Part shown: piece after piece, positions 2,925 to 18,131 of the stretch
Position numbering within the stretch: the first letter of the stretch is position 1
How the letters are laid out: every line of letters starts with the position of its first letter
IMG/VR virus record: IMGVR_UViG_3300036876_000145
Span: 1 to 19,488 of that record
Reading direction: 5' to 3' (one strand)
Source of the DNA: a virus
Lineage: Duplodnaviria; Heunggongvirae; Uroviricota; Caudoviricetes
Length of the DNA stretch: 19,488 bases
Translations under genes and position numbers: made by a program
The notes under the pieces: generated by a model
The model's input: only the letters and a program-made list of their open reading frames with translations
Databases searched by the model: none
Told to the model about the DNA's origin: nothing

Positions 2925-2952
2925 AAATTTCCAAAAATGAGTATTGTACAGT

Positions 2953-3231
2953 ATGGAAATACATCTAGAATTTAAAATTACTCTCGCTAGCGGGGAAATC
3001 GTTACTCAAGATATTCAACTCCCCGCTGATCCAAATTACCCCATCGACAAACAAATGAAAGCTCTCATGCAAACCATGATAAACCAATATTCTACCGTGG
3101 GTATGCTACGAGAAGTTGAACCTGGGGTTTACAGGTTGCTTTGCCATAGCCAAATATATTGGGTAGAATGTTCTTTACCGAAGATTGTTTTGGCAAATGC
3201 TACGGAAGTACCGCAGGTGACTCTTGAATGA
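2953..3231 (+). CDS. Hypothetical protein (about 92 aa)
   Basis: The ORF track starts at TTG 2944; ATG 2953 is the more likely start. Fills the gap after nrdJ with phage-like codon use. Confidence 0.7.
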   Translation: MEIHLEFKITLASGEIVTQDIQLPADPNYPIDKQMKALMQTMINQYSTVGMLREVEPGVYRLLCHSQIYWVECSLPKIVLANATEVPQVTLE

Positions 3232-3403
3232 TTTCCTTTGGATTGAATGGAAGATAGTGATTTTATTGATAGCTTTTTTCTGGTTGTTTATGGCGATTCA
3301 TGAACAAAAAGCTTTATCAAAACCTATAGCTGTTCAAAATCCTTGGTGCGATGCCTCTCCAGTTGATGGGGCAGGAAAACCAGAAATTTGTGATCACCAA
3401 TGA
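3224..3403 (+). CDS. Small single-pass membrane protein (59 aa; not in the ORF track)
   Basis: TTG 3224 preceded by AGGTGA. Translation MNDFLWIEWKIVILLIAFFWLFMAIHEQKALSKPIAVQNPWCDASPVDGAGKPEICDHQ* has one hydrophobic helix and a Cys pair. Confidence 0.55.
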   Translation: MNDFLWIEWKIVILLIAFFWLFMAIHEQKALSKPIAVQNPWCDASPVDGAGKPEICDHQ

Positions 3404-3763
3404 ACGATTATCAAAGATTTTGCATACACAGGTGTAAAATGCTGTTCCTTATGTCACGAAACGGGGTATGATATATCAGGACTGGAAGTTTGTATAGTTG
3501 ACGGACAGCCAGTTTTATTGTGTTGTACATTACATGTATTTTTTTATCCGCTAAAAGAAGATGGGTCGAAAATTACCCCCGAAGAAAAACTTCTTCGGGC
3601 AATTTTTGGAGAACGACCTCACCTTCAAGCAAAATATAGACTACTGACCTTTTTCAGTAGGGGGACTTTATGGATGAGATTGTTACTCCCGAAGCACAAA
3701 TCGAAACGCTTCTTCAAATTCTCGCCGCTATATTGGATAAACAAGGTGGGGAGATTGTTTTAA
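3404..3763 (+). CDS. Cys-rich small protein carrying an RNA polymerase beta flap-tip-helix motif (start codon uncertain)
   Basis: The track ORF 3518-3763 extends upstream without a stop to 3404: TIIKDFAYTGVKCCSLCHETGYDISGLEVCIVDGQPVLLCCTLHVFFYPLKEDGSKITPEEKLLRAIFGERP... The motif TPEEKLLRAIFGE (3575-3613) matches RpoB. The 3' end overlaps the next gene by 94 nt. Confidence 0.6.
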   Translation, partial: TIIKDFAYTGVKCCSLCHETGYDISGLEVCIVDGQPVLLCCTLHVFFYPLKEDGSKITPEEKLLRAIFGERPHLQAKYRLLTFFSRGTLWMRLLLPKHKSKRFFKFSPLYWINKVGRLF

Positions 3764-3906
3764 GCCGTAAAGACTTTGAAATGTACGAAGGTGCCCCTGT
3801 TGTTGTCCGACGCTTGTCCGGTGATTATGTCTTAATTCGCATCGCTTACGAAGATGAAGTTGCGGAAACGGATGAGTTGGATATTCCAGAAACTCCTCAA
3901 ACCTAA
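3670..3906 (+). CDS. Small acidic hypothetical protein (78 aa)
   Basis: GGGGGA SD upstream of ATG; D/E-rich C-terminus. Confidence 0.75.
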   Translation: MDEIVTPEAQIETLLQILAAILDKQGGEIVLSRKDFEMYEGAPVVVRRLSGDYVLIRIAYEDEVAETDELDIPETPQT

Positions 3907-3997: not shown

Positions 3998-4492
3998 ATG
4001 AACGTAATTGAGTACTGCACAGAGGAAGTGCGTAGACAAGGGCATGATATTACTCTGCTTGACGGCATTCAGAGAGTTGGTTGGATGTTAGACGGTTGGA
4101 CTTACGCTCTTGTTAACGTTTCCGATCGCATGCCTGATCTAGGTGATGCAATCAGTTTGGGTATGCTTGTGGAAGTTAAGAAGAATGTTAACGGACTGCG
4201 TAACTGTGACATCCGAGTAGGTGATTGTATATGCCCAAGACCAGATGAACTTCGTCGGCTGCTTAACAGGCTGTTCGATCTCCGTGATAGTATGACACCA
4301 ATCGAGTTTTACAAAGAGTTTGAGATGATTCATCCGTTTGTTGACGGTAATGGGCGAACGGGTAAGATTCTGTTCAACTGGTTAAATAGGACGTTATTTG
4401 ATCCAATCTTTCCGCCGAACGACTTGTTTGGTTATGTTGTAGCTAAACTGCCAGACGGACAGCGCGTTGCTGCCGAATTACCGACCGCATAA
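3998..4492 (+). CDS. Fic/Doc-family protein (minimal Fido domain, 164 aa)
   Basis: HPFVDGNGRTGK matches HxFx(D/E)GNGRxxR with the last R replaced by K. GAGG SD upstream. Confidence 0.9.
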   Translation: MNVIEYCTEEVRRQGHDITLLDGIQRVGWMLDGWTYALVNVSDRMPDLGDAISLGMLVEVKKNVNGLRNCDIRVGDCICPRPDELRRLLNRLFDLRDSMTPIEFYKEFEMIHPFVDGNGRTGKILFNWLNRTLFDPIFPPNDLFGYVVAKLPDGQRVAAELPTA

Positions 4493-5270: not shown

Positions 5271-5930
5271 ATGGCAGTAGCGGGAGCAGCAAAGGCGAAG
5301 AAGGTGTGTGAGGTGTTTGACACACCATATATCATTACCCTAGTTCAACAAGCAAAAGCTGGAGATGAAGCGGCTTTTTCAACTCTATATCACAAATTTT
5401 ATCGGTATTTGAGTAATACTATAAGGCGCGTTCTTCCCGGGCAACAACCGGATACAGCGGACTGGCTCGCCAACAAAGCCATGACCCAAGCCTGGTTAAA
5501 TCTCAAAAATTTCAATGAGAAATCCACATTTCAAACCTGGATTACACGCATTGCCATCAACGAATGGAAGATGTATATTCGTGAAGAAACATCCGTAGGT
5601 CGTCAACGAGACAAAGAACTTTCTCTAAATGAAATTTTGGATGAAAATCCTAGCGACGGTAAATTTGGACAACGGGACATTAATTTAGCTGGTATCGCTG
5701 ATCGACAAATGCTTGATTTGTCGCTTAAAGGTATCCCTAGTGTTTACCGTGATATTGTGTATTTAAAATTGTGGATGGGATTTTCCGTGAAGGAAATTGA
5801 AAATATCTTGGGAGTGAAAAGACCCAAAAAAGTCGGAATGAATATCGTTAAGGGTCGTAAGATGTTGCTGGAACAGGTAAAAAAGAATTCTACAAATAGT
5901 CCTTTACAAACAAGGATGACCGGGGTATAA
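5271..5930 (+). CDS. ECF-type (sigma-70 family, group 4) RNA polymerase sigma factor
   Basis: Region 2: LVQQAKAGDEAAFSTLY and STFQTWITRIAINEW. Region 4: IPSVYRDIVYLKLWMGFSVKEIENILG. 219 aa. Confidence 0.88.
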   Translation: MAVAGAAKAKKVCEVFDTPYIITLVQQAKAGDEAAFSTLYHKFYRYLSNTIRRVLPGQQPDTADWLANKAMTQAWLNLKNFNEKSTFQTWITRIAINEWKMYIREETSVGRQRDKELSLNEILDENPSDGKFGQRDINLAGIADRQMLDLSLKGIPSVYRDIVYLKLWMGFSVKEIENILGVKRPKKVGMNIVKGRKMLLEQVKKNSTNSPLQTRMTGV

Positions 5931-6057: not shown

Positions 6058-6705
6058 ATGAGAATAAGTAAGGTAACAATTTTTGCGTTAATTTTGAGTT
6101 TGCTTTCGTTTGTTTCCGCGGCATCTGCCGATCCCATCACTCTGACGAATCTATTCGGCACCATAAATATTAGCGATATCGGCGTAGGTGGAATGGGTAC
6201 GACTGGTTCAACTACCATTACATCTCACGGTTCGGAGCTAACAAACTTTGAAGGAATAACCGCTCCGCATGGGCATTCGCTTGGTTATGTAGGGTTTTCT
6301 ACCGGCGTGCTAGAAAGCGGAAGCGTGCTAAACGGTGGGGTATTTTCCAGTACCGGGTCCACTTTCGATGTTATCGGTAAGGGTAAATTTGGACAACCTA
6401 AGGGAAATATTTTTATCGGCAGCTTTGTAGGTCCTATTGACTGGACATTCATCTCCCAAAATAAACAGGAGCGAACCTACACTTTAACAGGTGAGTTGTC
6501 TGGAACACTCTGGAATGGGCGTTTTACAACTGGGTACACTACCCAAACCATCAATATACTCAACAAGAATCAATTGAATGGCGGTGTGGGGCACATTGGG
6601 CTTGGTTCTACGAGTATTTCCGCCCCTGAACCAGGGACTTTAGGTCTGTTGGGAACAGGACTCGTAGGGATCGCTGGAATGTTTCGCCGGAAGTATTTTT
6701 CTTAA
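6058..6705 (+). CDS. PEP-CTERM sorting-domain surface protein (exosortase substrate)
   Basis: N-terminal signal peptide ending ASA-DPI; G/T/S-rich beta-type body; C-terminal APEPGTLGLLGTGLVGIAGMFRRK (PEP + transmembrane helix + basic tail). GGGGG SD. Confidence 0.9.
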   Translation: MRISKVTIFALILSLLSFVSAASADPITLTNLFGTINISDIGVGGMGTTGSTTITSHGSELTNFEGITAPHGHSLGYVGFSTGVLESGSVLNGGVFSSTGSTFDVIGKGKFGQPKGNIFIGSFVGPIDWTFISQNKQERTYTLTGELSGTLWNGRFTTGYTTQTINILNKNQLNGGVGHIGLGSTSISAPEPGTLGLLGTGLVGIAGMFRRKYFS

Positions 6706-8873: not shown

Positions 8874-9206
8874 ATGGCTGTTACACTTACACCAAAAGCT
8901 GTTACGAAAGTGAAAGAGATTATTGCTGGTTTGGATGACCCTAAACCTGTAGCTTTGCGCCTTAGTGTGATCGGGGGTGGCTGCTCTGGATTTCAATATT
9001 CCATGCAGTTCGAAAACGAAAAAGGCATGATGGATAAAGAATACGATTTTGATGGATTGAAACTTCTTGTGGATGGAACATCCGCAATGTACTTGGATGG
9101 TTGTGAAGTGGATTATTTGGAGACACTGGAGAGCAGTGGGTTCAAATTCAACAATCCCAGTGTGAGTCGAACCTGTGGTTGTGGTAGTTCTTTCGATGTA
9201 AAATAG
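8874..9206 (+). CDS. iscA: A-type Fe-S carrier (IscA/HesB/ErpA family)
   Basis: LRLSVIGGGCSGFQY; YLDGCEVDY; GFKFNNP; TCGCGSSF, with all three conserved Cys. Confidence 0.95.
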   Translation: MAVTLTPKAVTKVKEIIAGLDDPKPVALRLSVIGGGCSGFQYSMQFENEKGMMDKEYDFDGLKLLVDGTSAMYLDGCEVDYLETLESSGFKFNNPSVSRTCGCGSSFDVK

Positions 9207-17008: not shown

Positions 17009-18131
17009 AAGCGAATACCTTATTAGGCGGTATTAGACACTATGCTACAAGTCCAACTCAAACTTCGACCTTGTAAGGCGCAAGAACAAATCTACGACCA
17101 GTGGCTCTATAATTTGGCTTCGGTTTACAACTTTGCCGTCCGCAAGATCGAGCTAAACGCCAAGGACAAAATCTACTTCTCCAAGAACGATTTTCAAAAC
17201 TTGTTGGCGAACCACGGAGAGAAGTTGGGTATACCGAGCCACACAATTCAGGGCGTGCTCTGCACCGTCCACGATGCGTGGAAGCGTTGCTTTAAGAAGA
17301 CCGCAGGCAAACCAAAACTCAAAGGGATGCGTAACAAGATGTCCAGCATCCCGTTCCCCGATCCCATCAAGGCACCAAAAGGCAACCGCATTACGCTTCC
17401 GGGTTTGGGCAGTGTCCGCTTTCACAAGCAGGAAATATCAGAGGGAAAGATCAAGTGTGGACGATTGATCAAGCGTGCGTCTGGATGGTATCTGTGTCTA
17501 TTCATAGACGCAGAGCCGAATCCGATTAAGCGTTTGGCGTTTGGGGCGATAGGCATTGATCCCGGATTTTCAAACCTGCTCACAACTTCGGATGGAGAGG
17601 TCATCGAACACCCACGGGAGTTAGAAGCGGCAGCAGAGCGTCTTGGACAAGCACAGCGTGGTCACAACAAACAGTTGGCAGCGAGGATTCAGGAGCGCAT
17701 CGCCAACCGCAAGAAAGATAGGAACCACAAGCTAACAACGAAGCTGGTATCTGAGAACGTGCTCATAGTTTGGAGCAAAGATGCAATCAAGGGAATCGCA
17801 AAACGATTCGGGAAGAGCGTGAGCAGTTCATCTCACGCACAAATTCGACAGATGTTGTCCTACAAGATGCCCAAAAGCGGTGGGACGTTTATCGAAGTTG
17901 CTTCCAAGTATTCCACCAAGACCTGTAACGAATGTGGTAATCCGACAGGACCCACAGGACTTGCAGAATTGTCGGTAAGGCAATGGCGATGTTCTGCTTG
18001 TGGAGCAGAGTACGACCGCGATGTCAATGCGGCTCGTAACACGCTATTCGCCGGGGCAGGATGTGCCCACGAGGAGTTGGCTTATGTCTAACTCGGACAG
18101 GAATCCCCAGAGTTTACTCTGGGAGCATCAA
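17009..18131 (+). mobile_element. Non-autonomous IS200/IS605-family (IS1341-type, tnpB-only) element
   Basis: Left: TTGAT at 17004-17008, then hairpin AATACC...GGTATT at 17014-17034. Right: GAAT (18101-18104), hairpin CCCAGAG-TTTA-CTCTGGG (18106-18123), terminal TCAA (18128-18131). No tnpA. The left boundary is inferred. Confidence 0.8.
17042..18091 (+). CDS. tnpB: TnpB RNA-guided endonuclease family protein (RuvC-II Glu apparently replaced)
   Basis: RuvC-I GIDPG (D173); Zn finger CNEC...CSAC; RuvC-III DRDVNAARN (D327); IVWSKD at the usual IxxEDL position. 349 aa. Confidence 0.93.
   Translation: MLQVQLKLRPCKAQEQIYDQWLYNLASVYNFAVRKIELNAKDKIYFSKNDFQNLLANHGEKLGIPSHTIQGVLCTVHDAWKRCFKKTAGKPKLKGMRNKMSSIPFPDPIKAPKGNRITLPGLGSVRFHKQEISEGKIKCGRLIKRASGWYLCLFIDAEPNPIKRLAFGAIGIDPGFSNLLTTSDGEVIEHPRELEAAAERLGQAQRGHNKQLAARIQERIANRKKDRNHKLTTKLVSENVLIVWSKDAIKGIAKRFGKSVSSSSHAQIRQMLSYKMPKSGGTFIEVASKYSTKTCNECGNPTGPTGLAELSVRQWRCSACGAEYDRDVNAARNTLFAGAGCAHEELAYV

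Follow-up and report, generated by a model that had tools for sequence, protein, structure and literature searches.

A family of small cysteine-rich phage proteins carrying a copy of the RNA polymerase flap-tip helix, candidate surrogates for the partner of sigma region 4

The DNA stretch analysed here (the window, 19,488 nucleotides) opens a 102-kb IMG/VR record, of which it makes up the first 19.5 kb; the record has a CheckV completeness of about 30% and is a fragment of a huge phage. Among several small genes on its plus strand, the features of which are collected in Table 1, there is a frame that is open from stop to stop at positions 3404-3763. In this frame (frame 2), the codons ACC CCC GAA GAA AAA CTT CTT CGG GCA ATT TTT GGA GAA encode the peptide TPEEKLLRAIFGE, identical in 13 out of 13 residues to T896-E908 of E. 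coli RpoB, which form the beta flap-tip helix. The probability of meeting the exact 13-mer by chance is roughly 20^-13 per position, and a degenerate DNA pattern for the motif occurs once in the 102-kb record, with no occurrence of the reversed-pattern control.

An earlier reading of the window, made from the sequence only, had recognised the flap-tip 13-mer in these codons and placed it at about residues 896-908 of E. coli RpoB. Both statements were confirmed by the translation and by a PDB phmmer search, in which the stretch around the motif aligns residue for residue with E. coli RpoB 893-909; the same search also matches the sigma4/flap-tip chimeras 3T72, 6IDO and 7KUF. The remark that the flanks are not RpoB-like proved correct as well, because no Pfam match to RNA_pol_Rpb2_6 (PF00562), the profile holding the flap, was obtained at E<=10 in any of the 58 family members described below, and the alignment to RpoB is never longer than about 17 residues (residues 59-75 in the PDB phmmer search). 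Likewise, the metal-binding-like Cys cluster is present in the form of a CC-x2-CH group and a second CC pair, and the gene noticed 1.7 kb downstream does match phage sigma factors. On the other hand, the proposed open reading frame of about 119 residues holds only as a stop-to-stop opening: there is no ATG, GTG or TTG ahead of TTG 3518, and the last 42 codons are a read-through over the next gene, because TAT replaces the TAA stop.

Table 1. Features of the flap-tip locus, in window coordinates.
Feature	Position	Strand	Basis
Upstream neighbour, ~93 aa, no known family	2944..3231	+	47-71% identity, five lineages
Ancestral ATG start, overlapping the TGA (3401-3403) of an upstream 59-codon ORF as ATGA	3400..3402	+	Homologue frame agreement; out of frame with the core here
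Conserved core of the Cys-rich flap-tip-helix protein, frame 2, 77 codons	3404..3634	+	Homologues, alignments, AF2 model pLDDT 80
11-nt deletion site relative to L002/L003 (7 nt in L007)	3412..3413	+	Contig comparison
CC-x2-CH putative metal-ligand cluster, core C13, C14, C17, H18	3440..3457	+	Invariant columns in family alignment
Second CC pair; C40 invariant, C41 conserved to at least 90%	3521..3526	+	58-sequence alignment
Terminator-like RNA hairpin, 8+9 bp then T run, formed from motif codons	3567..3608	+	dG -19.1 kcal/mol; z about -4 to -4.5
TPEEKLLRAIFGE, copy of RpoB flap-tip helix	3575..3613	+	Exact match to E. coli T896-E908; helix by prediction
TAT in place of TAA stop	3635..3637	+	Three closest relatives
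Read-through tail, overlapping the next gene by 94 nt	3638..3763	+	No homologues
Downstream neighbour, 78 aa, acidic C-terminus, phrog_37448 (function unknown)	3670..3906	+	PHROG match and synteny
Phage sigma factor, regions 2 and 4	5271..5930	+	Sigma70_r2 3.8e-8; phrog_1740 4.7e-13; synteny

In regard to the state of the gene in the window, near-identical contigs from other samples (L002, L003 and L007; 98.7-99.8% identity over 0.6-7 kb aligned) allow its lesions to be traced. Where L002 and L003 carry ATC-AAAAAACCTGT-AAAG, 11 nt are missing from the window and 7 nt from L007, and the TAA stop shared by all three contigs is TAT in the window, which adds 42 codons and carries the frame into the next gene; a search for homologues of this read-through tail found none. 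The L002 form and the divergent homologue P0003 share the string Y-x-K-x-C-[KR]-DFAYTG, as does P0002, and from the agreement of the first two it follows that ATG 3400 was the ancestral start, with a gene product of about 82 residues ending in ...HLQAK. In the window, this ATG opens only a 23-residue peptide in a frame other than that of the conserved core, the 11-nt deletion having shifted the frame and taken out the first Cys of the core, which is at least 90% conserved among 58 sequences. L007 differs from the window by three substitutions and one indel over 3.8 kb, two of these changes, a substitution and the indel, being located inside the 235-nt gene. The core and the helix of the window are 95-100% identical to P0001/P0002; compared with the family as a whole, the copy lacks the first Cys, any start codon in frame and its stop codon. 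Due to the frameshifting 5' deletion, the lost Cys and the lost stop codon, the copy in the window is probably inactive, an assembly error being the alternative. The occurrence of such lesions in closely related genomes shows that the phage can do without the gene, at least for a short time.

A mobile element is found at the same place in two of these relatives. In L002 and L003, the flap-tip gene is immediately preceded by an IS200/IS605-type element that encodes TnpB (L003:468-545). The right end of this element, ...GAGCATCAA, is found again in a TnpB copy at window positions 17042-18131 and in a third copy at about 91,620-91,697 of the record. In TnpB/omega RNA systems, the DNA following the right end, as in L003, is the expected guide-matching target, and TnpB of ISDra2 cuts about 15-21 bp from the TAM. 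The 11-nt deletion of the window and the 7-nt deletion of L007, both in element-free genomes, cover about positions 9-21 of this flanking target. The 5' deletions may therefore be repair scars of TnpB cleavage or escape mutations, and not the outcome of selection against the flap-tip protein.

The window protein belongs to a family. A word-index search with it gave three small proteins, a three-sequence profile extended the set to 49, and further members came from an exhaustive HMM search over 1.84 billion representatives. With three unrelated repeat proteins left out, the family comprises about 72 clusters with lengths of 59-149 residues (in round terms 70-130). Its carriers are huge phages of peat and soil, while more distant members reside in prophages and other mobile elements; a contig scan with the helix as a pattern was dominated by rpoB genes and gave no prophage hosts. 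The part shared at the N-terminus is a domain of roughly 55 residues whose six Cys and single His are conserved, and it follows the pattern C-[KR]-D-F-x-Y-T-G-V-x-CC-x2-CH ... [IV]-D-G ... A-L-L-CC ... F-F-Y-P. This core is followed by a short linker, then by [ST]PEEKLLRAIFGE, and finally by a tail that is usually acidic: the median net charge of the proteins is -9, and the tail after the helix is negative in 50 out of 56. The Cys-rich domain is probably metal-binding, with a fold that was not recognised.

Conservation within the family is concentrated in the Cys positions and in the helix. In the alignment of 58 sequences, the invariant columns are C13, C14, C17, H18, C40, P49, L63, I67 and F68, and those conserved to at least 90% are C3, D5, C41, Y48, E60, E61, L64, A66 and G69. 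The equivalents of RpoB L901, L902, I905 and F906 are thus invariant or nearly so, and conservation extends to those of E898 and G907. In 56 of the 72 clusters, 10 or more of the 13 residues are identical to the E. coli helix, the match being exact in five. The 13 motif columns have a mean pairwise identity of 0.87, versus 0.48 for the rest of the core. Among six lineages for which DNA is available, all degenerate codon positions of the motif vary while the amino acids stay fixed; all four codons are used for Ala, for Gly and for CGN-Arg, four codons are used for the first Leu, and synonymous sites in the motif are saturated. Residues fixed over varying codons indicate that the motif is under long-term purifying selection as a peptide, and exclude a recent rpoB scrap. 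The sequence-only reading had argued for selection at the protein level and had proposed looking for small proteins in which the motif is kept while the flanks vary; this is the pattern that was found, with homologues retaining the motif amid different flanks and codons. Frame-broken homologues, which it had named as evidence against the idea, are a matter of the window copy, where the 5' frame and the stop are lost, and not of the family.

These data also bear on whether the peptide might be a recent remnant of a host rpoB gene in the course of decay, or a non-coding terminator hairpin whose translation happens to resemble the flap tip. Taken by itself, the copy in the window could give such an impression, since start and stop codon are both missing from it and it includes a strong hairpin of terminator type, composed of an A-tract, a 9-bp GC-rich stem and a T run, in which GAAGAA (Glu-Glu) pairs with TTCTTC within CTTCTTC (Leu-Leu). 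However, intact homologues at 45-60% identity hold the peptide with different codons, the similarity to RpoB is confined to about 17 residues, and the hairpin is absent in the five other lineages compared. The rpoB fragment is thereby refuted for the family, and the hairpin was rejected as the primary feature: being confined to the lineage of the window, it is not what has been conserved. We consider this explanation extremely improbable.

Not all members have the complete architecture. Distant ones are extended at the N-terminus and have a helix that has degenerated (E.KL.R.IFG type), such as SREEKLLRKIFGE or AEGKLLREIFGE; one setting in which they occur is a prophage-like island, others are the neighbourhood of serine recombinases and restriction-type genes and a chromosomal context. 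In P0048, P0090, P0092, P0093 and P0094, the Cys core continues up to FFYP and is followed by unrelated tails devoid of the flap-tip helix; the existence of such members indicates that the Cys domain is an independent module with its own role. A different kind of extension was noticed in P0029, P0037, P0039, P0042, P0043 and P0047, where the called open reading frames start with the near-identical string MEPD[AV]R[QL]SAM, which precedes the likely true start and has a counterpart, MGPDDHKLAM, in L009 (L009:10001-10027). Its sharing among divergent phages suggests a conserved upstream DNA element, possibly a promoter or a leader; a promoter common to the lineages was not evident by eye upstream of the gene.

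The AF2 model obtained with the family alignment (pLDDT 80) shows a small alpha/beta domain and a terminal helix at residues 63-72, which is the motif. No fold matches to this model were found in the PDB with Foldseek at E<=0.001, among 48,161 chains with VIA-align at Z>=2, or in AFDB clusters and BFVD, and a feature search of the ESM Atlas returned only noise-level scores (0.80-0.81). Pfam gave no gathering-level match for the window protein and the 58 members. Weak matches to Zn_ribbon_11 (PF11682) occurred in 9 of the 58, the best with an E of 0.0015, below gathering, accompanied by sub-threshold TRASH hints, while a structural match to a zinc ribbon was found neither by PDB Foldseek nor by VIA-align nor in AFDB clusters. 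A role of the helix in the architecture of the protein only, be it an amphipathic helix of convergent origin or a part of rpoB captured long ago, for packing on the Cys domain or for self-association, would agree with its being modelled with fair confidence in the monomer and with its degenerate versions in distant members. A helix of this kind would nevertheless be free to drift like the rest of the core, and internal packing alone is hard to square with 12-13 residues of near-identity in 56 clusters and with the reappearance of the helix in a second, unrelated architecture (see below), which makes a purely structural role quite improbable. For an exposed terminal helix, identical to the docking helix of RpoB and borne on an otherwise drifting protein, the best explanation is that it serves as a surrogate for the original.

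The genomic surroundings of the gene are stable. In five phage lineages (the window together with L002; L004; L009, a 278-kb contig; L014; and L015), a block is retained that consists of a class II ribonucleotide reductase, the protein of about 93 residues, the flap-tip gene and an acidic protein of about 80 residues. The neighbours within the block are 47-71% identical across the five lineages and diverge about as much as the flap-tip gene itself, and from the conservation of the block it follows that the gene is a stable component of the phage clade. In the window, L009 and L015, and thus in three of the four long contexts, a sigma gene (regions 2 and 4) follows within 2 kb, while L014 has no sigma gene within 6 kb of the flap-tip gene. 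Such proximity could mean that the protein serves the phage's own sigma as a dedicated partner, either an anti-sigma acting until a later stage or a chaperone of region 4 until core becomes available. The two genes are co-directional and less than 2 kb apart in the three contexts mentioned, and sigma/anti-sigma pairs are commonly linked. Still, two or three genes lie between them, the sigma gene is missing from the vicinity in L014 and in the elements that hold distant members, and the helix copies the host flap tip, which every sigma can bind; a partnership restricted to the phage sigma is unlikely. A phage-encoded multisubunit polymerase that would need a flap tip in trans was also considered and set aside, as no Rpb2 or Rpb1 domain is present in the 102-kb record, an observation of little weight at a completeness of about 30%.

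Furthermore, the same helix occurs in a second, unrelated family of 21 clusters and about 119 residues, in which it is fused N-terminally to an RpoD-like sigma region 4. These proteins begin with [LP]PEEKLLRAIFGE, continue with a linker of about 20 residues and end with region 4 (PF04545), terminating in ...LRHPSRS..L..YL. One member, P0054 (L008:253-612), is encoded on a phage-like contig together with RecT and a DnaA/IstB-type loader. Region 4 of sigma is the only natural fusion partner found for the flap-tip helix, and the fusion family connects the two in the manner of a natural Rosetta stone. Fusions of the P0054 type may act as polymerase-free binders of the -35 element. A single-sequence AF2 model of P0054 (pLDDT 48) is too poor to show docking of the helix on region 4. 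Engineered chimeras of sigma4 and the flap tip are stable enough to have been crystallised (PDB 3T72, 6IDO, 7KUF); they have in common with the proteins described here the use of the same 13-17 residues outside the polymerase, which in the chimeras form an isolated sigma4-binding helix, but are artificial, tethered to region 4 and devoid of the Cys domain, and their natural equivalent is the P0054 family and not the window protein.

The best explanation of these observations is a flap-tip surrogate that would occupy sigma region 4, most plausibly that of the host primary sigma, a proposal for which we regard the chances as evenly balanced. According to it, the free helix would present the hydrophobic face formed by the equivalents of L901, L902, I905 and F906, as the real flap tip does to region 4, and the protein would occupy the flap-binding groove of sigma, most plausibly of the host primary sigma before it joins core. 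Region 4 would consequently be uncoupled from the polymerase, an outcome like that of AsiA but reached through mimicry, and this would favour the phage's own programme. We infer each of these steps in turn: that the helix is a mimic, that it binds region 4, and that the sigma concerned is the one of the host rather than of the phage. Region 4 is favoured as the target because of the fusion family, the synteny with a phage sigma and the strong acidity of the proteins, which would suit the surface beside the DNA-binding face of region 4. A complex of the window core (family alignment) with E. coli sigma70 528-613 was predicted with a score of 0.27 against a mark of 0.32 and was counted neither way. 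Against a decoy it can be said that a free helix must compete with a flap tip tethered inside the holoenzyme. A decoy could also harm the phage's own sigma, since this sigma needs the host flap tip, unless the Cys domain provides specificity.

The residues in question are engaged by several partners. L901, L902, I905 and F906 form the interface with the region-4-like domain of phiEco32 gp36 (gp36-CTD) (PMC12276001), the same flap-tip residues insert into NusA-NTD (PMC5842316), and they insert into AsiA as well, where E898 and G907 matter too (PMC6755090). Because NusA-NTD and AsiA use the same face of the helix, its conservation does not single out sigma. The protein could therefore be a true mimic of the flap tip with another target, either NusA-NTD, in which case NusA would be titrated away from elongating polymerase, with less pausing and termination as the consequence, or the flap-binding regulator of a competitor phage (gp33-, Q-, P7- or gp39-like), against which it would be a protective decoy. 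Exactly the four hydrophobic positions are bound by NusA-NTD and AsiA (PMC5842316, PMC6755090), the long operons of huge phages could profit from antitermination, and the flap-tip gene is not always beside a sigma gene. As the sole natural fusion partner found is region 4, and a sigma gene is nearby in three of four long contexts, we find a non-sigma target rather unlikely.

A fuller version of the preferred reading, in which the free-standing copy of the flap-tip helix is stabilised by metal and put to use by huge phages and other mobile elements, can be put forward more tentatively, as possible though somewhat doubtful. The protein would be a decoy that titrates region 4 of the host primary sigma, its acidic tail may in addition cover the -35-binding surface, and it would represent the first known copy of a bacterial polymerase surface element turned by a virus against sigma, with the sister fusion as a polymerase-free reader of the -35 element.

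Comparison with known systems indicates where the family stands. AsiA of T4 is likewise a small, early phage protein, and its likeness to the family would extend to the target, sigma region 4 uncoupled from the flap tip, and to its belonging to a phage that redirects the host polymerase. AsiA itself, in contrast, is an all-helical protein of about 90 residues that lacks a Cys cluster and does not resemble the flap tip in sequence; its action consists in remodelling region 4, and it is also a ligand of the flap tip in its own right (PMC6755090). The AsiA profile gave no Pfam match in the family, whose model has beta strands and the Cys cluster, and no matching fold was found in PDB or BFVD. T4 gp33, lambda Q, Xp10 P7, P23-45 gp39 and phiEco32 gp79/gp36 act on the same polymerase surface and reprogramme host transcription, binding or displacing the flap tip or region 4 (PMC3351154, PMC3985653, PMC6606751, PMC12276001); none is reported to copy the flap tip, and they are possible targets of a decoy and not relatives. 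WhiB-like proteins of Actinobacteria and actinophages, also small and Cys-rich, are described as metalloproteins binding region 4 of the primary sigma (10.1101/2025.06.05.653497). They differ in having four Cys with a [4Fe-4S] cluster, another fold and motif, and no flap-tip helix, and WhiB (PF02467) had no Pfam match at E<=10 among the family members. Zinc-binding anti-sigma factors (ZAS, H-x3-C-x2-C), whose anti-sigma domain wraps around sigma regions 2 and 4, are represented by no zf-HC2 match either, the ligands of the family being arranged as C-x9-CC-x2-CH-x~21-CC. With the RpoB flap domain the family shares the 13-residue helix, up to about 17 residues in some members (L-S-P-E-E-K-L-L-R-A-I-F-G-E-K-A), and nothing else, as these proteins of 80-100 residues have neither an Rpb2 domain nor the beta-arms of the flap.

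To our knowledge, the phage proteins known to reprogramme the polymerase (AsiA, gp33, Gp2, P7, gp39, gp79) each use a fold of their own to bind the polymerase or sigma. Work on proteins of this kind has more than once uncovered working principles of the enzyme and sites at which it is open to inhibition. Mimicry of a subunit fragment would, if true, be a new strategy, and would offer a natural probe for the interface between region 4 and the flap tip, through which recognition of the -35 element, the action of NusA and several antitermination systems are controlled. As the helix is identical to that of E. coli, the idea is testable at once in standard E. coli systems. In accordance with the sequence-only reading, which knew of no phage mimic of the flap tip, no description of the peptide, of a flap-tip mimic or of such a decoy was found in the full-text literature, a survey of jumbo phages (PMC7824862) included. 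Searches for the flap-tip protein in PHROGs, for relatives among 50,697 GenBank phage records (blastn and tblastn) and in IMG/VR with back-translated peptides gave no match, and the family, the domain that carries the helix and the mimicry strategy all appear to be undescribed so far.

Several other genes in the vicinity deserve mention in their own right. Two genes downstream of the flap-tip gene, at positions 3998-4492, a Fic/DOC-domain protein is encoded (1.7e-10), and 25 nt at 4454-4478, near the 3' end of this gene, are missing from L002, so that the strains differ in the C-terminus of a possible host-modifying enzyme. About 5 kb downstream, according to the annotation of L002, lie an IscA-like gene (PF01521, Fe-S_biosyn; 8874-9206) and a NifU_N/IscU-like gene (PF01592; 9221-9601), which could bear on the choice between an iron-sulfur cluster and zinc in the Cys-rich protein. 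Finally, a protein of 215 residues (6058-6705) ends with a C-terminal PEP-CTERM sorting motif (4.7e-6), a signal that hints at a host with an exosortase system.
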